From a virus, in IMG/VR virus record IMGVR_UViG_3300031867_000045, positions 1-64,000 of that record: a stretch of DNA of 64,000 bases. One strand, 5' to 3'. The number at the start of each line of letters is the position of its first letter. The stretch's first letter is position 1. Made by a program: the position numbers and the translations under genes. Of the stretch, positions 1 through 12,099 are shown one piece after another. The notes under the pieces were generated by a model, which saw nothing but the letters and a program-made list of their open reading frames with translations, did not search any database and had not been told where the DNA came from.

Positions 1-667
1 GTTCTTTTTCAGATTGGTTAAGAATGACATAATTATTTCTCCTTTTCTTATGTTTTTTTCAAGACGCTTCAAATTTTAGCAAATTTTCAAAGTAAATAAA
101 AACTATATTTGATTGCCATTTTCGGCAATCTATTTTTCTTTAGTAGAAGAATAGCAACTCTCGCAAGAATCACATTCCCATATTTGATTTAATCTAATAT
201 GTAATATCATTTTATTGTTTTGTTATTATTGCTGTATACCAGTAACATTTAACCGGCGCGTCTTATCACGACACTTCAATTATCGGGACAAGTGCAGGAT
301 TTTAACCTGCGTTTTCTCCTTTAAAGGGAGACGATCTAAACGCTGATCTAACTCGTCAATAATATTGCTGTCGATGTCGTATCATTCTATATGCTAAACG
401 CAAAATGCGTTAAAGCCAAAACTTCAAGACTCCATAAGGTATTAAAAGAGGCACTGTGCTACCGTTACACTACCATGCCGGAATCGAACCGAACCTGCGC
501 CTTGGAATATTTTATAACCAAAAATTGCTGTCGGAGTCTTATCAAATATTAAATTATCAAGACACATTGTTTGCGACCCTATCGGGTTTGGCGGACTTGA
601 ACCGCCTAAATATAACAGCCAAAAGTAATATTATTATCCATGCGTAAATTTGCTGTATGTGTCTTAT

Positions 668-1310: not shown

Positions 1311-1546
1311 ATAAATCGATATATACGAATAGCAAATCCGCGTTGACCCACATATATCAGATGGGATTAAGTTCTTTTTGTTTTAATATGCCATAAATAT
1401 CGTTTGTTCTGGTAAAACGGTGTAGAACTTTTGTAGAATAACACCAAATAACCCACCAATCATTTAAGAATCGTTTGGTCGCGACAATACCGCCGGATTA
1501 ACATAGGCGTTCGACTATTTGTATGGCTACTACGCATAGCTGCGTT

Positions 1547-1620
1547 TGGAGGGAGGTGCAAGATTTGAACTTGCCCGGACAGTGCCACAAACTGACGTGC
1601 TACCGCTACACTAACCACCC
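1547..1620 (-). tRNA. tRNA-His (anticodon GTG); position -1 is U, so no G-1 is encoded
   Basis: 74 nt; D-stem gtgt/gcac; anticodon loop ttGTGgc with G37; T-arm gcaag-ttcaaat-cttgc; acceptor gggtggt/acctccc; CCA encoded; base 5' of position 1 is U. Confidence 0.65.
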
Positions 1621-1689
1621 ATATACAAAGGACAAAATGATAAACAAATTGCCCTCAATATCCATTATTCTTTATGGGGCTTCTAATTC

Positions 1690-2013
1690 TTAAATGGATT
1701 CACTTTGTTTTGTCTCATAATCCTTACGATATACACATTCTGCAATTACTTCCATATCGCCACAAATCACCATTTGAAGAACTATAATGTCTTTATCTGG
1801 ATCATCTACATAACGAGTGCGACAAAATCTATCATCAAAATCTGTTTTTGTCTTTTGAGCCTTATTTCCACCCTCATGGAGTAATTCATTAGCTCGTTTA
1901 CTGTTGAGGTTAAATCTCTCAAACCAACTTTTAGAATGATTTTTGAGGATGGCACCTGTCACAGCATTGATCTTGATGCTCTGGCTACTCGAACTTGAAT
2001 AACTGTTGAACAT
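1690..2013 (-). CDS. hypothetical protein
   Basis: 107-aa ORF between tRNA-His and a membrane protein gene; no recognisable motif. Confidence 0.4.
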   Translation of the reverse strand: MFNSYSSSSSQSIKINAVTGAILKNHSKSWFERFNLNSKRANELLHEGGNKAQKTKTDFDDRFCRTRYVDDPDKDIIVLQMVICGDMEVIAECVYRKDYETKQSESI

Positions 2014-2015
2014 TA

Positions 2016-2426
2016 CTATGAAATCAATCCTTTAACAACACCATAGAATTGAACTTCCGGAATAAAACACCATTTCAATAATGAGGTTAAATTTATAGCA
2101 ACCAATACGATGCAGGTGATAAATAATACGCCTATTCCGCAAGCCAAAATTGTCGTTACAAGTATAACATCTTCATCATCTTCGTCCGAATCATTGTCCC
2201 ATTTTTTATACTTTTTCTTTAATTTAAAAGATAAGAAAATACCAACGATAATGCCAATGATACCAATACCAAGCCAAATAGAGTTATTTGTAATTGAGTA
2301 AGCACGATATCTCTCCATAATATCTTGGATATACGGAACGATATTCTCAGCACTCCAATTGATTGCAATATTAAATTTTTCGGCAAGATAATTCAATACT
2401 TCTATGATCTGTTCAGAAACTTCCAT
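2016..2426 (-). CDS. hypothetical membrane protein
   Basis: 136 aa with two hydrophobic helices (IVGIFLSF..., ILACGIGVLFITCIVLVAI). Confidence 0.45.
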   Translation of the reverse strand: MEVSEQIIEVLNYLAEKFNIAINWSAENIVPYIQDIMERYRAYSITNNSIWLGIGIIGIIVGIFLSFKLKKKYKKWDNDSDEDDEDVILVTTILACGIGVLFITCIVLVAINLTSLLKWCFIPEVQFYGVVKGLIS

Positions 2427-2437
2427 TACTATCTCCT

Positions 2438-3211
2438 TTACTCACCAACAAAAATTAAATCATCAATATATTTCCGACCTTCGCCCTTGAAAACGGGAAT
2501 TTCATCATCAATCACCCACGAACTTCTGCCGGTAGTCTGATCGACTTTGCGAATACAACAACTGCCACGCTTATATTTTGTCGGATAACTATTCCAGTCA
2601 ATTCCCTTTTCATTGAGCAACATCTTGATGATCTCGCTCGTATTTTTACCGTGCATTTGCTTATCGGAAAAGTTTGCATGACCGACCATTTGAATCGAAT
2701 TTCTGATCGCGTCCTGCTGCCGCCAATAAATATTATTGGCTACTTCCTCTTTCGGAATGTTAAATACACGAGCATCAAACATAGCGCCCTTTGTTTCTGC
2801 TATTCCATGTGCGCAATCCCAGCCGATAACCCAACCGCGTGAGAACGCTTTATTAAAAGCTAACGTCGCCATGCTTGCCGCTACGCTTGCACATTTTTGA
2901 ATGTTGTAATCAAACCACGCGGTGGTATTAAGTTCTTTGTAGTCGATCAAAACTAATGTGATCTCGTCCGACTGAGTATAACCAAGAACGCAACCTTGAA
3001 TATTCTCACATAGATATCGCATAGTGTCTTGCATAGCCGCCGAAAGAACAGTATCAAATGGTCTTTGGAATCCGCGAGTGAAAGTATGAAATGCCTTACC
3101 GTCGATTCTGATAATGACCGGCGTTCTCGTAGTTAAATAATTCCGAGAAACATATTCATATTTTTTCATTCTCTTATCGAAGTCGCTGTATTTGCTCATA
3201 ACGTATTTCAA
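2438..3211 (-). CDS. Thg1-like tRNA-His guanylyltransferase
   Basis: 257 aa with Thg1 signature blocks: TPVIIRIDGKAFHTFTRGF, GYTQSDEITLVL, plus the downstream acidic/aromatic regions typical of Thg1/TLP. Confidence 0.7.
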   Translation of the reverse strand: MKYVMSKYSDFDKRMKKYEYVSRNYLTTRTPVIIRIDGKAFHTFTRGFQRPFDTVLSAAMQDTMRYLCENIQGCVLGYTQSDEITLVLIDYKELNTTAWFDYNIQKCASVAASMATLAFNKAFSRGWVIGWDCAHGIAETKGAMFDARVFNIPKEEVANNIYWRQQDAIRNSIQMVGHANFSDKQMHGKNTSEIIKMLLNEKGIDWNSYPTKYKRGSCCIRKVDQTTGRSSWVIDDEIPVFKGEGRKYIDDLIFVGE

Positions 3212-3399
3212 TCTCCGTTGTAATGTTTATTGAATAGTTCTTCCGCCCGTTTCATATCTTCATCAAATTGTTGTTTGGTTTTGTAAAAAGGGCAATTTCC
3301 ACGAGTTTCGCATAACTTTTCGCGTAGAATAACACATTTTTCGCGAAATTCGTTTCCTCCTGGATTTGCGAAACAATCGTAATATTTCTTATCCGTCAT
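3208..3399 (-). CDS. small Cys-rich protein, translationally coupled upstream of thg1
   Basis: 63 aa with CxxxxxxxxC...CxxxGNC pattern; its stop overlaps the thg1 start (ATGA). Confidence 0.35.
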   Translation of the reverse strand: MTDKKYYDCFANPGGNEFREKCVILREKLCETRGNCPFYKTKQQFDEDMKRAEELFNKHYNGD

Positions 3400-3422
3400 A
3401 TGTATTTTCCTTTACTTGTTCA

Positions 3423-3497
3423 TGGCAGGGTGACAAAGACTCGAACTCTGACTTTCGGTTTTGGAGACCGACGTTCTACCAGTTAAACTACCACCCT
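3423..3497 (-). tRNA. tRNA-Trp (anticodon CCA)
   Basis: 75 nt; anticodon stem tcggt/accga, loop ctCCAaa; T-loop ttcgagt; CCA encoded. Confidence 0.7.
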
Positions 3498-3675
3498 GTA
3501 GTTGGGCGTTTTTGAGTTGTCGCCCGCAACTGTTTAGGTTAAAACAATATTGTAATTATCATGTTCGATGATTCCTCGCTGACCTATATCAGCAATTACT
3601 ACATCTTCGTTATCCGTTACGGTAAGAGGTAAAACATGATAATAAAACTATTCAGTTCAATGAGTTATGAACCGA

Positions 3676-3752
3676 TGGTGACTGCGGAGGGAATCGAACC
3701 CTCACTCTCCACCTTGAAGGGGTGGCGACTTATACCGTTCGTCTACGCAGCC
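3676..3752 (-). tRNA. tRNA-Glu (anticodon TTC), with an unusual C33
   Basis: 77 nt; anticodon stem ccacc/ggtgg, loop ccTTCaa; T-arm gaggg-ttcgatt-ccctc; CCA encoded. Confidence 0.5.
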
Positions 3753-3946
3753 ACATATGTCCTCGTCTTTCCGAGGTGCCACTTATTATTGGATTCCAAC
3801 CCCCAACGTTAATAAGAAACGCGGATGGTTTTTCTGGAATTAGAGGACATAACCATCAACCTCTTAACATTCTCTGCATACGGATTTGCACCGTTTCTCC
3901 ATCTTTTCTTCGATGGCGTTTTACCTTATAAACTATATAACAGAGA

Positions 3947-4022
3947 TGGTAGCTCTGGCGGGAGTCGAACCCAGCGTCACACGATTGAGAGCCGCGTATC
4001 TTAACCGCTTGACTACAGAGCC
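3947..4022 (-). tRNA. tRNA, anticodon tentatively CTC (Glu)
   Basis: 76 nt; D-arm gtca...agcggtta; anticodon stem cgcgg/tcgtg (two G-U pairs), loop ctCTCaa; T-loop ttcgact; ACCA encoded. Confidence 0.4.
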
Positions 4023-4239
4023 ATATAGATTATCCAACAACCGCCGTTAATTAGTGGCGACCCGATTTTTACGTTTATCGGAAAACGCTTTTTTGATCGG
4101 CAATTTATTAATCGCATAAGCCTTATAGCGATAATCTCTGTTGTTGGCTTTTGCCGTCTTTCCAGCTGTCGTCGATGGTTTCATTCCGAATCCAAGAATA
4201 AAACCAAGAGAAGAAATTTAAAATGAACTTAGCGGTTCA

Positions 4240-4692
4240 TGGTGGAGCTGGTGGGTGTCGAACCCACGTCCAAAATTCATACTCAAATTAACTATTTTTA
4301 CGCAATAGACTAATTTTCACTGAATCCGTATTAGTCAAACGCTGGGTTCATTCAAATAGGTCGCCAGTTACCTTTGGGAATGTAAAGGTTTATACTTTAC
4401 AATCGTCCACCACTTACTTTTTAGGAAAGCAAGAAAACCATCGCATGCGGCACCACTTGTTTTTAAGGCTCAAACAAGAAACCATCATTCAATATTCGTC
4501 CGACAAATTAACCGAATGACAGGTGTTTACCGGAATCTGGATCAAGCCGCAGTTCTCTTAGAGAGAGCAGCGACAAGAGCCGGATGAAATACAACAGTAG
4601 TATTGTCGTTTATTTTTGTTTTGCGCCGTAAGGTGGATCGCCAACCTGCGAAGTTAATTCTTTCAAAACCCTGTCGAATCCAATTCAGCCCC
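4240..4692 (-). ncRNA. ssrA: tmRNA (ssrA-like transfer-messenger RNA)
   Basis: 5' end GGGGCTGAATTGGATTCGACAG and 3' end GGACGTGGGTTCGACACCCACCAGCTCCACCA match the tmRNA tRNA-like domain (E. coli GGGGCUGAUUCUGGAUUCGACGGG and GGACGGGGGUUCAAAUCCCCCCGGCUCCACCA). An internal frame ends ...NDNTTVVFHPALVAALSKRTAA-TGA, which looks like a tag peptide. Confidence 0.65.
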
Positions 4693-4838
4693 ATATTATA
4701 GAAACTTGTTACCGACATTTGCGGAAAGAAAGTTGTTGGCAAGCGCACATTTTACTAAAACTTGCCGATTTGACGATGTGCTTTAATTTAGTTAATGGTA
4801 TATATCGATGCCAATGGGCGTACCGCCAAGAATGGCGG

Positions 4839-4933
4839 TGGCGGAGCGGGTGGGACTCGAACCCACACACCGAGATCGCTCGGCTACTTTCTGTGTAGCA
4901 AACAGATACCTTACCAATTAGGTTTACCGCTCC
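4839..4933 (-). tRNA. tRNA-Ser (anticodon GCT), class II with long variable arm
   Basis: 95 nt; anticodon stem tctgt/acaga, loop ttGCTac; long variable arm; T-arm gtggg-ttcgagt-cccac; CCA encoded. Confidence 0.7.
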
Positions 4934-5550
4934 ATTTCTATCGGTTTTAGACTCCATTTATATCCAAAAGCTGTTTTACTCAAACCTCTGGCACAATCAC
5001 TAATATGACCTGGTTTTTTACCAATAAATCTTGCAGCATCAGAATATGATTCAAATGTATGTAATAAGTTGCCGTTAAGATCATATTGATAAATAATCAT
5101 ATGATTTTCTAAATTACTATAATCTTTATTATTAATTGCGTAGTCAATAATATTTTCTGCCGTAAAGTCATCCACACAAAGAGGGATTGAAGCATTTACT
5201 TTTCTTCTACTAAATGCCAATGTCCTTGTAGAACCATTGCAAAATTCAATCGGTAAAAGATAACATTGATTATTGTAATATGTTCCAATCATATCAATTT
5301 CATTTTTCGTGTATTCATGTTTTACATTTTCTTTGCCGGAAGTTGTAATTGAATATGCTTTAATTTTGATTCCCGTTTCAACTTCTACGCAACTTTTTAT
5401 TTGAACTCTTAATAATAAGTTATTAACATCAAGTATAAAATCGTATTTGCAATCTTCTCCAATAGGAACACTCACATTATATCCAAGAGAAGTTAGATAT
5501 GCCTCACACAATAATTCTGTTGCTATCCCTTTTGCTTTACCATTAAACAA
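4924..5550 (-). CDS. homing-endonuclease-like protein (PD-(D/E)XK-like N-domain plus C-terminal NUMOD/AP2-like DNA-binding repeat)
   Basis: 208 aa. N-terminal motif ELLCEAYLTSLGY...DxxxDFIL..RVQIKS resembles a restriction-endonuclease-like core. C-terminal IYQYDLNGNLLHTFESYSDAARFIG..GxISDCARGLSKTAFGYKW is a typical homing-endonuclease DNA-binding module. The stop lies in the 10 nt overlap with the 5' acceptor strand of tRNA-Ser. Confidence 0.5.
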   Translation of the reverse strand: MFNGKAKGIATELLCEAYLTSLGYNVSVPIGEDCKYDFILDVNNLLLRVQIKSCVEVETGIKIKAYSITTSGKENVKHEYTKNEIDMIGTYYNNQCYLLPIEFCNGSTRTLAFSRRKVNASIPLCVDDFTAENIIDYAINNKDYSNLENHMIIYQYDLNGNLLHTFESYSDAARFIGKKPGHISDCARGLSKTAFGYKWSLKPIEMER

Positions 5551-5989
5551 ATTATTCGTTCACCTATTCGCCTATTCAATTTATGGAACTTTGCACTCCG
5601 CAAATATTTAATTTATCACGGAGTGCTTACCGCTCCATATATCCCGCGACTTCCGCCAAAACTATTATGTATCAAATGGTTGCCTTTTGCGAGCCGCGAG
5701 GAATATAGTTTGTTACCTTAGCTGTTATCTCTTTGAATGTTGCAATCAATCTCAGAAGTAGGTTGCTATCCTAATCGTTTATCATCAATTCCGTAGCCAA
5801 TTCGGAAAGATGGATAATCGAAGCCGTGAATCCCGACTCAACATATTGTTCATTTCGCTAAAATGTCACAAAACACGCTGCTTTAGTTGAAACAGTACCC
5901 CATTCTTTGCGGTAAAGAATATGAAAACCCCAATTTCCATAAAGTCTATCGGATAACCAAACTTTGCGGCTAAAGGCAGTTCGACCTTT

Positions 5990-6065
5990 TGGCTGGGTCA
6001 CTCGGAATCGAACCGAGAGCGGTGGGGTCAAAGCCCACTATGTTGACCGGTTACACCACAACCCA
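5990..6065 (-). tRNA. tRNA-Gln (anticodon TTG)
   Basis: 76 nt; anticodon stem gtggg/cccac, loop ctTTGac; T-arm ctcgg-ttcgatt-ccgag; CCA encoded. Confidence 0.6.
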
Positions 6066-6225
6066 TCGTGTGATCGAGCCACAGGACTCACACCTGCGGG
6101 AATGAAGGTTAGGGTTGACTGCGCACATCTCACCTAACAGCATTTATTATTAATCTCGTTCTTTTACTTTACTTCATTACTTCATAATCCGTGCTTTTAA
6201 GAGATTTTCTTTTTGGTCAAGATGT

Positions 6226-6296
6226 TGTGGGAGTCGAACCACACCCTTCCGCCCTTACGCGGGCAGCGTGCTATCCGCTACACTATCACTCTAATC
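6226..6296 (-). tRNA. atypical tRNA-like element (possible pseudogene), anticodon unresolved
   Basis: Canonical D-arm (tagtgtagcggatagcac) and T-loop (ggttcgactccc) are present, but I cannot fold a 7-nt anticodon loop or a matching acceptor stem. Confidence 0.3.
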
Positions 6297-6387
6297 TCTG
6301 CCACCCATCAACAAAATTGTACGGTTTCATTAATGGTTGTACGTTGTGGCACATTTCATATGGCTTTATACTCACTACTCGATCAAA

Positions 6388-6461
6388 TGGAGCGAATAAA
6401 GGGATTTGAACCCTCACAATCAGAATGGAAATCTGATGTGCTACCGTTACACCATATCCGC
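6388..6461 (-). tRNA. tRNA-Gly (anticodon TCC)
   Basis: 74 nt; anticodon stem tcaga/tctga, loop ttTCCat; T-loop ttcaaat; CCA encoded; acceptor gcggata/tattcgc. Confidence 0.7.
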
Positions 6462-6524
6462 AGATTTGTGGGAGGGAAGCGAGGTGTGAAACCCTCCCAC
6501 GAGGTAATCTATAGTTACAAATTA

Positions 6525-8174
6525 TTAGGTGTTATCTGTATTTTCCGGCAAGGTGTCCTTTTTCTGAACGCCATCGGCAGGTACTACCTGAGTAGTAGAT
6601 AGCAGACCCTTTACAGGTTCGGCGATGCTACCCACCAATCCACGAAGTTCATCATTGATCGGCTTGCCGTTAAGGGCTTCATTCTGAACATTCAGAGTTT
6701 TCATCAGCGCAGGAATACTGGATAAGGTATCGACAAGAACGTTGCCGGAACCACTGCCCTGAGAACTTCCGCCGAAGTTGATAAACTCAGCCTTGCTACC
6801 AACTGAACCCATAAGTTCCGCGGCTTTGGTTGCAATCTGCACTTTACCCTCTGTTTCGATCTTCAACTTCTCGATCTCGAAGTTTACTTTCTCGTTAGAC
6901 GCTCTCGCTTCTGCAAGTGCGCGTTCACCTTCGGCTTGTGCCATAAGTTTCTGCTTTTCTACCTCAGCTTCCGCAAGACCTTTCTGCTTGATGACTTCCG
7001 CATCGGCAAGACCTTGCTGTTTTGCAACCTCAGCTTGTGCAAGACCTTTCTGCTTGGTAACGTCAGCTTCGGCATTACCTTTCTGCTTGATGACTTCCGC
7101 AGAAGCATTACCCTCTGTCTTAACCTTTTCCGCTTCTGCTTGTGCTGCGATCTTGATGGCATCCGCGTGGTTTCGTGATACCTGCACCTCTGCCTCTGCA
7201 CTGATAGTCTTTACATTCGCTTCCGCTTCGGCTTCGATGCGCTTCTTCTTCTTTTCTGATTCTGCTCTTGTGGAGATAACTTCCTGCTCCTTGATTGCTG
7301 CGAGATTTGCCTGTTCCTGCTTGACAACCTCAACACGACCCTTTTGCTGTTCTACCTCCTGCGCTCGAATGGTTCTCTGCAACTGACCGGCAACTTCGGC
7401 ATCGGCGTCTGCCTTATCAGTTTCAACCTTGAACGCAGCCATTTTCAGTTTATTATCTCTTTCTTTCTCAGCGATAGCCAACTCGGATTCCAATTCGGTC
7501 TGAGAAGCTGTACGCTCAGATTCAGCGTTTTGAGTACGGATAGCCTGATCTACCTTTGCTTTCTTGCTTTCGGCTTCACGGCGCTTATCCTGCATATCAA
7601 GTTCGGCAATGTTATCATAATAACCATTGTTGTCGTTGATGTCTTGGATGTTAAGGCTTACAAGTTCCATACCCATGTTGAGCATTTCATCCTGAATAAT
7701 ATCCTTAACCTTATTAGCAAATACCGCCTTTTCAGATAGTACACTTTCGGGGGTCATTGATGCTACTACATCACGAACACCACCCATAAGTGTCATTCTG
7801 GTGTCGCTGATAATCGCATCCTTTCCTCTTTCCTTAAAGGAAATGATTGCTTTCAGCAACGTTTCCGGATTTGAAGTATCGGGGCGAATCTGCGCCGTCC
7901 AGTCAATAGTAATCGGTACTGATGTTGCCGTCATAATCTCGTCACCATTTGCCGTTACCGTTAGCATTGACAAATCAAAATAATCATACTTGCGAATAAT
8001 CGGCATTACGAACGCACCGCCCGAAACATGAATTTGCGGTTTCTTGCCGCCCGTTACGATCAGTGCCTTGTCTACGCTTGCGACCTTATACATTGATTTT
8101 CCGATCAGGAAGATAGCCACAAGGATAACCAACGCAATTCCGACAGGAATGAGGATTGATAAATATTGTTCCAT
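6525..8174 (-). CDS. SPFH/band-7 (flotillin/YqiK-like) membrane protein with a long Ala/Glu/Lys-rich repeat tract
   Basis: 549 aa with an N-terminal TM helix and a band-7 core. It contains an 11-aa tandem repeat (KQKGLAEAEVx, about 6 copies, also visible as ~33-bp DNA repeats at 6950-7110) and a long coiled-coil. Confidence 0.65.
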   Translation of the reverse strand: MEQYLSILIPVGIALVILVAIFLIGKSMYKVASVDKALIVTGGKKPQIHVSGGAFVMPIIRKYDYFDLSMLTVTANGDEIMTATSVPITIDWTAQIRPDTSNPETLLKAIISFKERGKDAIISDTRMTLMGGVRDVVASMTPESVLSEKAVFANKVKDIIQDEMLNMGMELVSLNIQDINDNNGYYDNIAELDMQDKRREAESKKAKVDQAIRTQNAESERTASQTELESELAIAEKERDNKLKMAAFKVETDKADADAEVAGQLQRTIRAQEVEQQKGRVEVVKQEQANLAAIKEQEVISTRAESEKKKKRIEAEAEANVKTISAEAEVQVSRNHADAIKIAAQAEAEKVKTEGNASAEVIKQKGNAEADVTKQKGLAQAEVAKQQGLADAEVIKQKGLAEAEVEKQKLMAQAEGERALAEARASNEKVNFEIEKLKIETEGKVQIATKAAELMGSVGSKAEFINFGGSSQGSGSGNVLVDTLSSIPALMKTLNVQNEALNGKPINDELRGLVGSIAEPVKGLLSTTQVVPADGVQKKDTLPENTDNT

Positions 8175-8190
8175 TAAATTCTCCTTTTAT

Positions 8191-8312
8191 GCTTTTCGAG
8201 ATATTTACTGAATATCCCGATATTTTAACCGCATTTCCAGCGGCTCTTGACTACATTTAATATTGTAGCAAATCACCATTCAGTTGTCAAGTGTTTTCGA
8301 GTAATTTCTTAA
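8191..8312 (-). promoter_or_regulatory. promoter cassette: conserved motif, TTGACA-17 bp-TACAAT, hairpin, second motif copy, RBS (drives the SPFH gene)
   Basis: On the minus strand: AAGAAATTACTCGAAAACAC-TTGACA-17-TACAAT, then ccgctggaaatgcgg hairpin, then AAATATCTCGAAAAGCA followed by AAGGAG and ATG. Confidence 0.7.
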
Positions 8313-8320
8313 ATATTTTT

Positions 8321-9061
8321 TTAGAATGTATACCCGTCCATTAATCTCATTTTGAATTTATTTTTCTGATGGAGTGCATCAATCTTGTTCTTTACTGCCC
8401 CATCTTCGCAAATGCCTGTCCGAATATACCGATCAAGCGTTTCGTATGTAAAACCCAGGTTTTCCTCGTCAGTCTTTCCGCACAAACCATCTGATGGCTC
8501 TTTATCCATCAAATAGTCCGATAATCCGAGAGCATACCCAATGTCAATGACTTCACTTTTTGTAAACGGGGCAAGCGGCGACAAATCACCAACAGAATCT
8601 CCGTATCTCGTTGAATATCCGATATAGTCCTCAGATAAATTGCAAGTATTGACAACTCTACCGTTACTGCTCTGTGAAACAGCGTATAATGCAGCCATGC
8701 GGATTCTCGCAGGGAGATTGGTAGTTGTCTGACCGGAAATATTAAGAGTAGGCTCTTTTTCCATTCCGTCTAAAATTCCATCTACGGAATTGCCGATATT
8801 GATGGTAAAACTCTTAATTCTAAGAGTATTCACAAGCGTTTCAGCATATTTAATATCGTCCTGCTCGTGGTCTGGAAGTAAAACGCCGATGACGCGGTTT
8901 TCTCCCAAAGCCTTTACGCACAACGCGGCAACCACAGAGCTATCAATTCCGCCGGAAATTCCGACAATGGCTTTTCCAAAATTGCTATTCTTTCTGAACC
9001 AATCCTTAATCCATTCAGCACACTTTTCAGCATGATAATTTCCAAATCCAAATCTATTCAT
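8321..9061 (-). CDS. nadE: NH3-dependent NAD+ synthetase
   Basis: 246 aa; SGGIDS PP-loop motif and overall NadE-like sequence (GISGGIDSSVVAAL...). Confidence 0.75.
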   Translation of the reverse strand: MNRFGFGNYHAEKCAEWIKDWFRKNSNFGKAIVGISGGIDSSVVAALCVKALGENRVIGVLLPDHEQDDIKYAETLVNTLRIKSFTINIGNSVDGILDGMEKEPTLNISGQTTTNLPARIRMAALYAVSQSSNGRVVNTCNLSEDYIGYSTRYGDSVGDLSPLAPFTKSEVIDIGYALGLSDYLMDKEPSDGLCGKTDEENLGFTYETLDRYIRTGICEDGAVKNKIDALHQKNKFKMRLMDGYTF

Positions 9062-10530
9062 TAGAAATCACCGCCGTGCAAAGTTTTTCTGATTTCTTTC
9101 AGACTGGTTTCTTTCAGCATTTCACCATCACGGAAAATAGGCTTTAACATATTGCAAGGATCATTACTTGCTTCTTCCCAAGTCTTTTGATCTGTATAAG
9201 CAATCCCGCCATAATAATCCTCATAAACAAGACAACAACCCTTTTGAGAAGTCTTGAATCCGCCCTCTTTCGGGTCTTTGAAAATGGGAGTAGGCTTTCC
9301 GTCAATCTCACAATATGTCGCCTTAATACAAGAACTGAAAGTATCACGAGTAAACGGTTTTAGAATCCCATCTTCTTCAATGCACTGGAATGAGAACGAA
9401 CCGACACCGAGAGATACATTACAAGCCGCAAATCCGTTTTCTTTGAGAATTTCATAAATCTTCTCGCAACGCTGAACGGTAATTGAATCACCGTACAGAG
9501 CTTTCACACGAGGATCGAGGACTTTATATCCCTTGCTATTAATATAACCGCCGAACTGATCCCATAACTTGAATACCGTCTTTGTTACGACTTCCACGCA
9601 ATCGCCGGAATCTCCGCGCATAAGCATACAACCATTATGGTTCATAATTTCCTTTTTGAGTTTCGGAAGTACGTTATCAATTACATTCCAGTAATCATAA
9701 GAATCCAAAACGCAAGAAAATGATGTATTCGGGTAAATCTCCGTCAACAGTCTGCGGAGCAAAGTAATTTCATCACCGTCAACCGCAAAATTAGAACACA
9801 TTACAGAATGTTCGGTACTCGGAGCGCCAAATCCAACAGGTTCATTTTTGCAATCACAATTATAATTCTTTTCCAAATACGGAATTGCGGGAACCGTTGC
9901 AGTATTCAAGAATGAAAGCAACCAACCCGCAGCCGCCTTCGTTGCAGACTGTAAACATTCCTCACCGCGAAAATCAAAATCTCCCAACGCTCTTGCTCTC
10001 GGCATATCGTCGTCACAGGTTTCAGCATAATACTTGTTCACGATTTCACGATAAGTTGCGCCGACGGTGGCAGCCAACATGGGGTGCCACATTTCAGCCG
10101 AGATCAGCGATTCAAGCGACTGAGGAAGCCATGCAAAATCGGGATGGGTATTTGTGATTCCGAACATCGGAACGTGCATAGGCACTTTCGTTCCTTCGGG
10201 CAACGCCACAATTTCAATGGGTAAATATCCGAGATTATGCAGTTTCTTGATTTTGTTGATATTATATGTATCTTTTCCAAGAGTGGCGTCCATGATTCTT
10301 TGATATTCAACCAAAATCAGGTCGAGGGGCTTTTCAAAAAATTCTCTGTTGAAGTAATCAATCAGATATTCCTTAATAAATCCCTGCAATCCAAAGAATA
10401 CAACTTCATTCCAGCGCTTTACTCTGCTCATTCTCGGAGTAAAATAAGATACCGATTTTGTGATCTTTTCCGGCAACATTTCAGCGTGTACCGCCTTATA
10501 GTAGTCGATCAATAACATCGGATTCGTCAT
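9061..10530 (-). CDS. nadV: nicotinamide phosphoribosyltransferase (NadV/NAMPT)
   Basis: 489 aa; NAMPT-like blocks (DSYDYWNVI, LMRGDSGD, GVGSFSFQ...TRDTF) and the right length. Confidence 0.75.
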   Translation of the reverse strand: MTNPMLLIDYYKAVHAEMLPEKITKSVSYFTPRMSRVKRWNEVVFFGLQGFIKEYLIDYFNREFFEKPLDLILVEYQRIMDATLGKDTYNINKIKKLHNLGYLPIEIVALPEGTKVPMHVPMFGITNTHPDFAWLPQSLESLISAEMWHPMLAATVGATYREIVNKYYAETCDDDMPRARALGDFDFRGEECLQSATKAAAGWLLSFLNTATVPAIPYLEKNYNCDCKNEPVGFGAPSTEHSVMCSNFAVDGDEITLLRRLLTEIYPNTSFSCVLDSYDYWNVIDNVLPKLKKEIMNHNGCMLMRGDSGDCVEVVTKTVFKLWDQFGGYINSKGYKVLDPRVKALYGDSITVQRCEKIYEILKENGFAACNVSLGVGSFSFQCIEEDGILKPFTRDTFSSCIKATYCEIDGKPTPIFKDPKEGGFKTSQKGCCLVYEDYYGGIAYTDQKTWEEASNDPCNMLKPIFRDGEMLKETSLKEIRKTLHGGDF

Positions 10531-11393
10531 AGATTAAACACCTCGATTTTAGATGGCATTAAGTCAATATCTTTCGCATACTTCTGCGTACTCTTGACAA
10601 AAATGCTATCTGTAGTATATAGTTTCTCGATTAAATCTCCGTGTAACAATTCACCACGAAAAACGGTAAATTCACAATGAGTTACAAATAGATATATCTT
10701 ATCCGCGCCGAGTTCTTTTAACTTCTTCGCAGAATGTAAGAATGTTCCGCCTTTACTGCAAATATCATCAATGATTAAAACTATTTTGTTTTTAATCAAA
10801 TTTGTATCTCCGCAAACATCAAGCCCAAGAATATTTCCAGTTTCCCAATCTCGCCGTTTGATACCAAAAGCGTATGGTCGATTGATCTTGCCGGAATACC
10901 GTTTCATGGCACCTTCATCGGGAAAGAATATCGTTGGATTTGTTATGTAATTATCCTTGCAAACATTCTTAATTGCCTGTTCGATATAGGGAGTAGGTTC
11001 CAAAACGGTCAAATTATCGAACAACGCTTCACTCACAGAAGAATGAGGGTCTAAGACAACCACATTCAAGAATTTCAGCGCATTGATAAATTCCGCAAAA
11101 TATTTCAAAGTGAAAACATCCGATTTTCCCTTTACCCTATCCATTCTGGCGTTCGGAATATACGGCAAGAATAGCTCAACATCATAACCCAATCTTTGCA
11201 GGTGTTTTGTCAGAAATAAGATTGCTGCCATTTCACCGTCATTCTCGTAATGCCATGAAATAGTCACGGATTCTTGAATAGGCTCGACAGACTTCAACTC
11301 GGGTTTCAAGTGCAAAGTTCCATCGGGAAAATGATCGAGGACAACTTCGTTTCCATCAATTTTAATCATTCTGTTACCTCGTCGATCTGGCAA
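10527..11393 (-). CDS. prs: ribose-phosphate pyrophosphokinase (PRPP synthetase)
   Basis: 288 aa; PRPP-binding loop IVLIIDDICSKGGTF and PRPP synthetase N-domain. Confidence 0.7.
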   Translation of the reverse strand: MPDRRGNRMIKIDGNEVVLDHFPDGTLHLKPELKSVEPIQESVTISWHYENDGEMAAILFLTKHLQRLGYDVELFLPYIPNARMDRVKGKSDVFTLKYFAEFINALKFLNVVVLDPHSSVSEALFDNLTVLEPTPYIEQAIKNVCKDNYITNPTIFFPDEGAMKRYSGKINRPYAFGIKRRDWETGNILGLDVCGDTNLIKNKIVLIIDDICSKGGTFLHSAKKLKELGADKIYLFVTHCEFTVFRGELLHGDLIEKLYTTDSIFVKSTQKYAKDIDLMPSKIEVFNL

Positions 11394-11929
11394 GAGTGCA
11401 TGACCATCTTAGCAGCGTTATGTAATTCGGGAGTCACACCCGCACAACAAGAGAAGTCACAAGCGATTTGGATTTCCGGCGCGGCTGTCTTGATAACCAG
11501 TGCGTTAGTCACTACACAAATATCGGTACACAATCCAACAAGTTCAACGTAATCGAATCCGCCCTGAACAACAGCCTGAGCCAATGCGAAAGAGCCGAAA
11601 GACTCCTTCAAGAAAACTCTTTTATCATCGTTGTAAGTGAATTTTTCGTTCTTCTCGGCAAGACGATCTCTGAAAGCCTTTTCAATGGTTGGATTCAACT
11701 GCCAACCCTCGGTATGTAAGATACAGTGTTTCACGGGCAAGTGTTTGCCCTCATTAGAATCGAGGTATGAGTCCTCAAAATGTGTGTCATATGTAGCCGC
11801 GATCTCACCGTCGAATGTTTTGATTTTTTCTGCAACCTTATCAACGATTGCCATAGCTTCGGGAGTTCCGAGAGAGCCGTCAATAAAATCGTTTTGACAG
11901 TCAACCACGACAAGTAAACGTTTTTCCAT
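11366..11929 (-). CDS. pncA: isochorismatase-family nicotinamidase (PncA-like)
   Basis: 187 aa; VVVDCQNDF N-terminal motif and catalytic-cysteine block GLCTDICV typical of PncA. Confidence 0.65.
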   Translation of the reverse strand: MEKRLLVVVDCQNDFIDGSLGTPEAMAIVDKVAEKIKTFDGEIAATYDTHFEDSYLDSNEGKHLPVKHCILHTEGWQLNPTIEKAFRDRLAEKNEKFTYNDDKRVFLKESFGSFALAQAVVQGGFDYVELVGLCTDICVVTNALVIKTAAPEIQIACDFSCCAGVTPELHNAAKMVMHSCQIDEVTE

Positions 11930-12099
11930 TTAATTCTCCTTAAAAACTCTAAAATAGCGCCGATCTGTTGATTTTATGCGATAATCTTCTTCATCTTGTG
12001 CCTCCTTGATTTTGACATACTATATATAGTGGTTATAATATTTTATACCACAATATCTTGTGCTAAAAAGTGAATAAAACAGCGATTTGATTCACTTTC

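Follow-up and report, generated by a model that had tools for sequence, protein, structure and literature searches.

A probable free-standing PD-(D/E)XK homing endonuclease cassette within a tRNA-Ser(GCU) gene of an uncultured large phage

Homing endonucleases with a PD-(D/E)XK fold are, to our knowledge, known from essentially one characterised enzyme, which is cyanobacterial and intron-encoded. The gene of this enzyme, I-Ssp6803I of Synechocystis, is located in a group I intron of the anticodon loop of tRNA-fMet. I-Ssp6803I has no extra DNA-binding domain and functions as a tetramer that reads a 23-bp pseudo-palindrome (PMC3384342). In phage T4, SegB is described as a free-standing GIY-YIG homing endonuclease encoded in the tRNA cluster and absent from related phages, which recognises a conserved T-arm motif of tRNA genes and drives the co-inheritance of neighbouring tRNA genes (PMC2330249). 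Here we analyse 64,000 nucleotides (nt) of DNA from an uncultured large phage, positions 1 to 64,000 of the IMG/VR record IMGVR_UViG_3300031867_000045 (hereafter the window), in which a gene coding for a 208-residue protein related to I-Ssp6803I adjoins the tRNA-Ser(GCU) gene of a tRNA array. We propose, with a probability of roughly 0.75, that this gene is part of a free-standing homing endonuclease cassette inserted inside tRNA-Ser(GCU). What is new here is the family of free-standing, NUMOD1-bearing proteins with the I-Ssp6803I fold in phage tRNA arrays; the presence of homing endonuclease genes in such arrays was already known from SegB.

The features of the locus are all on the minus strand. 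The tRNA-Ser(GCU) gene (4839-4933) is intact according to ARAGORN, to the Rfam tRNA model (56.3 bits) and to an alignment with nine relatives. The free-standing endonuclease open reading frame (ORF; 4924-5550, from the ORF list and Pfam) is present in a single copy in the window and extends from a TTG start codon (5550-5548) to a TAA stop codon (4926-4924). As originally predicted, it overlaps the tRNA gene by 10 nt. The stop codon corresponds to tRNA nucleotides 8-10, and in the tail of the ORF, ...ATA GAA ATG GAG CGG TAA, the G of ATG is tRNA-Ser nucleotide 1; the final codons ATG GAG CGG TAA coincide largely with the acceptor strand. Upstream of the ORF are found, successively, the leader of the cassette (5551-5624, from the sequence and the RNA fold), a 12-nt stub (5625-5636), a candidate structured RNA of approximately 350 nt (5637-5989) and tRNA-Gln(UUG) (5990-6065; ARAGORN and alignment), which forms the upstream bound of a conserved Gln-(RNA element)-Ser order. 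The 439 nt between 5551 and 5989, initially described as about 450 bp of non-coding DNA, indeed contain no credible ORF, but they are composed of the leader, the stub and the structured RNA, and the latter is a resident of the locus rather than a part of the insertion.

The 12-mer TTACCGCTCCAT occurs exactly at 4924-4935 and at 5627-5638, the upstream copy consisting of 10 nt of tRNA-Ser and of the 2 nt that precede the tRNA. This recurrence had been predicted at 5625-5636, i.e., 2 nt away from its actual position. By itself the repeat carries little weight. Direct repeats that are exact over at least 12 nt and lie within 1 kb number 30 in the window, compared with approximately 7 expected under a first-order Markov model, and identity around this one does not go beyond 12 of 22 positions on either side, as might be seen if the repeat were a chance match and the endonuclease gene merely intergenic, with no insertion in the tRNA gene. 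It is the comparison with relatives that argues against such a coincidence.

We gathered uncultured relatives through the neighbouring Thg1-like gene, whose product is 58-70% identical in the closest 14 contigs (L numbers designate relatives below). In L005, L006, L010, L011 and L019, tRNA-Gln and tRNA-Ser(gct) are separated by 3 nt, and the endonuclease gene is absent from L005, L010, L011 and L019. In L001, L003, L004 and L007, the gap between the two tRNA genes is 351-531 nt, without the endonuclease gene. At the Gln-RNA-Ser locus, the gene is thus missing from these four contigs and from L123, and it is present in the window, L134, L135 and L177. Positions 5989-5637 of the window align with the Gln-Ser gap of the relatives that lack the gene. 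In L001, L003, L004 and L007 the RNA element abuts the first base of tRNA-Ser, ...GGCGGAAGTCGCGGGTTATAT being followed directly by GG.G..GTAA.CCTAATTGG... In the window, the RNA element ends at GGAGCGGTAAGC (5636-5625), foreign DNA comes next, and the alignment resumes at CTAATTGG, which starts at tRNA nucleotide 13. The inserted segment is 703 bp long (5624-4922) and consists of the leader (74 nt) and the ORF, followed by tRNA nucleotides 1-12 in a fresh copy; its deletion from the window recreates the arrangement of the relatives. The alignment with the nine relatives identifies the present first 12 nt of tRNA-Ser (4933->4922) as the copy brought by the cassette, and tRNA-Ser stays intact because the cassette supplies these fresh nucleotides.

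The upstream copy of the repeat immediately follows the conserved helix at the 3' end of the RNA element, and with its next two bases it corresponds to nucleotides 1-12 of tRNA-Ser in L003 and L011. We regard GGAGCGGTAAGC as the original 5' end of tRNA-Ser because of this identity with the tRNA-Ser start of L003 and L011, and the exact repeat together with the alignment of the relatives places this stub at 5625-5636. The same stub is found at the same distance, 86 nt ahead of the start codon, in L134 and L135. Because the upstream copy sits exactly at the tRNA-Ser 5' end of the gene-less relatives, we consider a chance match very improbable: that objection to the original prediction is contradicted by the alignment, and the proposed insertion at the tRNA-Ser gene is borne out. 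The reconstructed ancestral order is tRNA-Gln, the structured RNA of approximately 350 nt and tRNA-Ser. The comparison indicates that the 703-bp segment now follows tRNA nucleotide 12, with the old first 12 nt left upstream as a dead stub.

An insert that interrupts a tRNA gene might be a group I intron or another self-splicing element, with the nuclease being intron-encoded, and a group I intron had been suggested for 5551-5989. The closest characterised relative of the protein, I-Ssp6803I, is a bacterial homing endonuclease, and the stub joined to nucleotide 13 onward would make a plausible tRNA. However, no Rfam intron family was found in this region even at E≤10, and the non-coding portions of the insert, 74 nt on the 5' side of the ORF and 0 nt on the 3' side, are too small for a ribozyme. 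The window already has a complete tRNA-Ser that begins at its own 5' end and needs no splicing, and in L177 the copy of the stub has decayed (GGTACAGTAGGC) yet the tRNA remains intact. We give the intron hypothesis hardly any credence.

The original prediction had described the repeat as a target-site duplication. Its identification as a displaced tRNA 5' end stands, but the logic of duplication does not, because homing by double-strand-break repair makes no transposon-style duplications; the stub is rather a relic of the interrupted gene. A true target-site or att-type duplication generated by a transposase or an integrase, with the nuclease gene as cargo, would be another way to account for it. 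By analogy, and as a matter of general knowledge, integrative elements that target tRNA genes use integrases, duplicate the 3' part of the tRNA and leave partial tRNA direct repeats. As in those elements, the displaced part of the tRNA is supplied here by the insert, and a partial tRNA repeat marks its far end. In contrast, the insert in the window has no recombinase, it is the 5' end that is duplicated, and the repeat is 10-12 nt long, making this an analogy of outcome rather than of mechanism. The 703-bp insert contains a single ORF without transposase or integrase domains, its ends carry no terminal inverted repeats, and the length of the repeat varies by lineage, with 12 nt in the window and 10 nt in L134. 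Integration of this type is, in our opinion, exceedingly unlikely.

We then characterised the predicted protein. Pfam detects PDDEXK_5 (PF11645) at residues 3-105 (73.9 bits versus a cut-off of 26.1, E=1.7e-20) and a single copy of NUMOD1 at residues 152-187 (38.7 bits, E=1.1e-9). In nucleotides, the PD-(D/E)XK domain (residues ~1-147) covers approximately 5110-5550 and NUMOD1 covers 4990-5097. The restriction-endonuclease-like core and the NUMOD module of the original prediction were therefore recovered, but not its AP2-like repeat, as NUMOD1 is not repeated and no AP2 match was found in the 208-residue protein. The N-terminal part falls in a PHROGs family of unknown function. By sequence, the sole relative of solved structure is I-Ssp6803I (PDB 2OST; phmmer E=2.7e-6), whose alignment is gapless through D37, Q50 and K52, all three being aligned to identical residues of 2OST. 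Along with E12, these residues are invariant in 28 of 28 family members, down to 41% identity. An AlphaFold model built with 28 homologs has a predicted local distance difference test (pLDDT) score of 85.6. Its top four Foldseek matches in the PDB are chains A-D of 2OST (for 2OST_A, E=9.9e-10 and a template-modelling score of 0.73 on the target, over 147 aligned columns), followed by Hjc resolvases, with a weak match of the C-terminus to I-HmuI. Residue 12 is Glu throughout the phage family, versus Gln in the 2OST chain, where it could be a crystallisation mutant. Sequence and model together identify the protein as a predicted I-Ssp6803I-type PD-(D/E)XK nuclease with a C-terminal NUMOD1 DNA-binding module. 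It shares with I-Ssp6803I its fold and family, the match spanning essentially the whole 148-residue 2OST chain, and a link with a tRNA gene. It differs in being free-standing, phage-encoded and equipped with NUMOD1, and in its location in the 5' part of tRNA-Ser(GCU) with no intron.

A large protein collection yielded 27 full-length homologs of the same domain architecture, with identities of 92-42%, and their genomic contexts were established from exact-protein look-ups and by scanning IMG/VR with a profile. The gene is within a phage tRNA array, on the strand of the tRNAs, at 22 of 23 loci. Its immediate downstream neighbour is tRNA-Ser(gct) in six cases, namely the window, L177, L134/L135, L140, L148 and L151. 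The window and L177, whose proteins are 92% identical, each have the 10-nt overlap with tRNA-Ser(gct), which is also present in L140 and L148 (approximately 50% identical). Spacers to tRNA-Ser of 14 nt and 12 nt are found in L134/L135 (80%) and in L151 (43%), respectively. In the TAG-recoded phage L037 (43%), tRNA-Ser(gct) is instead located 17 nt upstream of the start of the gene. The genes followed by tRNA-Ser differ in what precedes them, which is the RNA element, tRNA-Lys or a tRNA-like gene that bears an intron. The recurrence of tRNA-Ser(GCU) as a partner fits a nuclease that would target that gene or travel with it. The I-Ssp6803I fold extends to a sizeable, uncharacterised phage family of free-standing, NUMOD1-fused proteins associated with tRNA arrays and, for several lineages, with tRNA-Ser(GCU) in particular.

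The endonuclease homologs in L037 (5001-5621) and L136-L139 have in-frame TAG codons at conserved positions, and therefore the phages that carry them appear to use a TAG-recoded code; tRNAs with the anticodon CTA were found in L155 and L157.

Several comparisons bear on the mobility of the cassette. L134 and L135 encode identical endonuclease proteins, and they are 98-100% identical from approximately 15 nt upstream of the stub through the end of tRNA-Ser, whereas the RNA element further upstream is just 60-86% identical and the downstream region is a mosaic. This contrast between cassette and flanks fits recent homing. Between the window and L134, the stub, the leader and the first 35 codons are 92-96% identical, compared with 52-78% for the RNA element and 64-68% for tRNA-Ser. 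The RNA element of the window is 82% identical to that of L007, which lacks the gene, and that of L134 is 75% identical to that of L001, which also lacks it, but the elements of the window and of L134, both of which have the gene, are only 70% identical. Gene presence conflicts with the kinship of the flanks, because the RNA element pairs the carriers with the gene-less L007 and L001. In L177, the tRNA-Ser is a different allele (acceptor GGCGCAG/CTGCGCC) with the same D and anticodon arms as that of the window, and the ORF tail is ETAQ* instead of EMER*; that tail is therefore dictated by the adjoining tRNA allele. Intron-less homing with co-conversion would be expected to produce such identity patterns, which we regard as supportive but indirect, short of proof. 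Like SegB, the endonuclease is encoded by a free-standing gene among phage tRNA genes that related phages lack, and tRNA-Ser appears to move along with the cassette. The nuclease is of the PD-(D/E)XK type rather than GIY-YIG, and its gene interrupts a tRNA gene, leaving a stub, and ends inside the tRNA, features for which the abstract on SegB gives no counterpart. Sporadic presence at a conserved locus and a modular nuclease/NUMOD build are in line with free-standing phage homing endonuclease genes.

It may also be that the nuclease is domesticated, or at least non-selfish, and resides near tRNA genes as a result of vertical descent and rearrangement rather than of ongoing homing. Such a protein might act on the tRNA/RNA-repair region, by processing or amplifying it, or be directed against the DNA of competitors or of the host. 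The invariance of the catalytic residues in 28 homologs down to 41% identity indicates that the protein is under selection, and the gene is located within an island of RNA-repair-like genes (Thg1-like, Tpt1/KptA, tmRNA and Band_7). In addition, a 2026 paper reports that SegB promotes the amplification of anti-defence loci (PMC13096335). Against it stand a presence/absence pattern that conflicts with the relationships of the RNA element, a near-identical cassette common to distinct phages, and the occurrence of the family at several different sites within tRNA arrays, all of which are marks of a mobile element. We regard this hypothesis as unlikely, keeping in mind that domestication and mobility are not mutually exclusive.

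If the cassette is a homing element, the nuclease would cut tRNA-Ser(GCU) genes, or their close surroundings, in co-infecting phages without the gene. The break would be repaired from the carrier genome, and the cassette would thereby be copied along with the adjacent tRNA-Ser (intron-less homing with co-conversion). The cassette probably first entered by a repair that relied on homology at the tRNA end but was illegitimate at the opposite end. A repair of this kind would leave the first 12 nt of the recipient in place, and the original break would lie near tRNA nucleotides 12-13, close to the D-stem. We infer that the stub then travelled inside the co-conversion tract. A direct repeat of 10-12 nt would also permit the clean loss of the cassette by recombination. 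Because the stub points to where the original break may have occurred, a candidate cleavage target can be proposed from sequence alone, and it could be used for biochemistry or enzyme engineering. The locus also offers a clean natural case of an element that interrupts an RNA gene and keeps it functional without splicing.

A number of points weigh against this scenario. The cleavage activity, the target site and the homing event are all inferred from sequence data. The restored tRNA would largely rebuild, in the carrier, a target centred on the insertion point, so that self-immunity would need another source, which might be the variable nucleotide 11, the sequence upstream of the tRNA, or a cut site located elsewhere. 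Selection, and not recent transfer, could in part explain why the cassette is more conserved than its flanks. Members of the family such as P0009 are found in tRNA arrays without adjoining tRNA-Ser, in more than one context. The stub is limited to one clade, which we read as the probable scar of one founding accident and not as a property of the family. A stub with at most one mismatch in 12 is found in the window, L134 and L135 only, and we rejected it as a family-wide feature, the possible degenerate stubs of L140 and L148 being too weak. Lastly, the closest gene-less relatives are only 60-70% identical in the neighbouring Thg1-like protein, and exact-protein look-ups with the endonuclease, the Thg1-like protein and a 63-residue neighbour found no near-identical genome with an empty site. 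The only genome that they returned was that of the same phage, which came from two or three samples and carried the gene in each. DNA and protein searches of the GenBank phage collection revealed no close relative; the matches were restricted to tRNAs and, at a distance, to PDDEXK_5 or NUMOD. DNA pattern scans gave known contigs, chance matches (e.g., L131, a GC-rich bacterial gene) and a contig of Ruminococcus sp. YE282 identical to L004.

We also considered the overlap between the ORF and the tRNA gene and its possible effect on expression. In L134 and L135 the left junction, the stub and the hairpin of the leader are as in the window, but the ORF ends with ...KPIA* at its own TAA, followed by 14 nt before the tRNA. 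Relative to these contigs, approximately 15 nt are missing between the gene and tRNA-Ser of the window, which fuses the reading frame to the tRNA. The overlap would appear to be secondary in the window, having arisen by loss of these ~15 nt. The three extra residues MER of the window protein are considered incidental, because most family members stop 4-6 residues after the GYKW motif.

The arms of the leader hairpin are GCACTCCG (5626->5619) and CGGAGTGC (5600->5593), and a Shine-Dalgarno-like AGGTGA (5565->5560) is located nine nt ahead of the TTG start. Folding of 5540-5645 predicts a two-tier hairpin that includes the stub and a stem over the TTG start (-32.3 kcal/mol, z=-4.9). This fold recurs in L134 (z of about -4.6 to -4.9 for L134 and the window) and has decayed in L177 (z=+2.7). 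Given the decayed L177 copy, we do not claim the hairpin as a conserved regulatory element. A consensus scan revealed no convincing dedicated promoter or terminator, with 14 promoter-like sites compared with 6.8 expected and none of them well placed. The endonuclease gene is probably co-transcribed with the tRNA array.

The overlap raises the possibility, which we hold to be quite doubtful, that expression of the endonuclease is gated by tRNA maturation, with only unprocessed precursor transcripts yielding the product. If this were so, the ORF would lose its stop codon when RNase P cuts at the 5' end of the tRNA, leaving a non-stop mRNA whose product would be tagged by transfer-messenger RNA (tmRNA). 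A phage tmRNA gene is located approximately 150 nt downstream of tRNA-Ser. It is not linked to the cassette, because it is also found in the gene-less relative L004. The presence of the overlap in a second clade (L140 and L148, approximately 50% identical) could reflect selection for damping a toxic selfish gene. In a wider version of this hypothesis, introns and inteins may not be the only means by which a homing endonuclease gene can reside inside an essential gene; the cassette would be a third, in that it brings a replacement for the gene end that it displaces.

The RNA element at 5637-5989, delimited by alignments and RNAalifold, has homologs in L007 (7091-7457), L003 (1341-1703), L134 (2838-3185), L004 (287-638), L001 (2325-2674) and L123 (8496-8865, minus strand). 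Its occurrence in relatives that lack the endonuclease gene shows that it is resident and outside the insertion. RNAalifold on the window and the six homologs predicts nine helices with 56 pairs, 25 of which show compensatory changes. In this structure 94.9% of the cells are paired, versus 32-50% when the partners are slid by 1-3 columns, and double changes occur in 25 pairs, versus 3-6 in the slid controls; none of 500 shuffles reached the observed values. These statistics are somewhat flattering, with seven sequences only and a structure computed from that very alignment. In the terminal helix, even so, compensatory changes are visible by eye, with CTCGCGGCT/AGTCGCGGG in most sequences and CTCTGATA/TATCAGGG in L003. 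A search with 4227 Rfam covariance models over 3000-7000 and 5540-6400 gave no family for the element at E≤10, with only the neighbouring tRNAs matching, and an nhmmer search of 178 sequences indicated that the element is confined to this phage clade.

The tRNA cluster of T4 also contains non-tRNA genes for stable RNAs, RNAs C and D, presumably processed from the tRNA transcript. By comparison, the element described here is far longer (approximately 350 nt with 9 helices), has no detectable Rfam similarity and is found in one clade of uncultured phages. We consider 5637-5989 a candidate new structured RNA of a phage tRNA/RNA-repair island, which may merit separate study. A literature search for a link between DUF2828 and the RNA element yielded nothing useful. 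L004, which has the RNA element and no endonuclease gene, is identical to positions 4284-5372 of L179 (NZ_FMUV01000001.1), a 207-kb contig in the assembly of a cultured Ruminococcus, Ruminococcus sp. YE282, which suggests that the hosts of the clade are rumen Firmicutes.

At approximately 1500-12000 (called genes in L124 and L126), the tRNA array is interleaved with RNA-repair-like and nicotinamide adenine dinucleotide (NAD)-salvage genes, namely Thg1-like, PTS_2-RNA (Tpt1/KptA), DUF2828/DUF7788, Band_7, NAD synthase, NAPRTase, ribose-phosphate pyrophosphokinase and isochorismatase. Directly 3' of tRNA-Ser is the phage-encoded tmRNA gene (4240-4692, minus strand; Rfam, 90.7 bits), followed on the minus strand by two tRNA-Glu genes, tRNA-Trp and the Thg1-like gene. 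ARAGORN missed this tmRNA in the window but called its homologs in L004, L134 and L179, with tag peptides ending in ...ALLAVLGQRAVA or similar. Upstream of tRNA-Gln in the array is tRNA-Gly(tcc) (6461-6388, minus strand). A degenerate tRNA-like stretch on the same strand, at approximately 6225-6300, scores only 16 bits with the Rfam tRNA model and is not called by ARAGORN; it has a good T-arm (GGTTCGACTCC) and an apparent 8-nt anticodon loop, and it may be a decayed or unusual tRNA.

At 285-357 (minus strand), the window has a tRNA with the anticodon TTA, which would read the TAA stop codon and which recurs in L134 (2238-2309), L153 (2664-2734) and L159 (2588-2658). We rejected TAA recoding in the window: of 55 long ORFs, 36 end in TAA, which makes it the main stop codon, and the ORF statistics agree best with the standard code. 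L134 also has a reverse transcriptase gene (641-2098; RVT_1 and YAcAr) just upstream of its tRNA(tta)-Gln-RNA-Ser block, and no counterpart was seen in the region of the window that was examined. After tRNA-Gln, L001 (2144-2240) and L003 (1262-1340) contain an extra T-arm/acceptor-like element missed by ARAGORN. Likewise missed by ARAGORN, a tRNA-like gene with a 45-90-nt insert in its anticodon loop is located just upstream of the endonuclease gene in L140 (3790-3910) and L148 (2780-2905).

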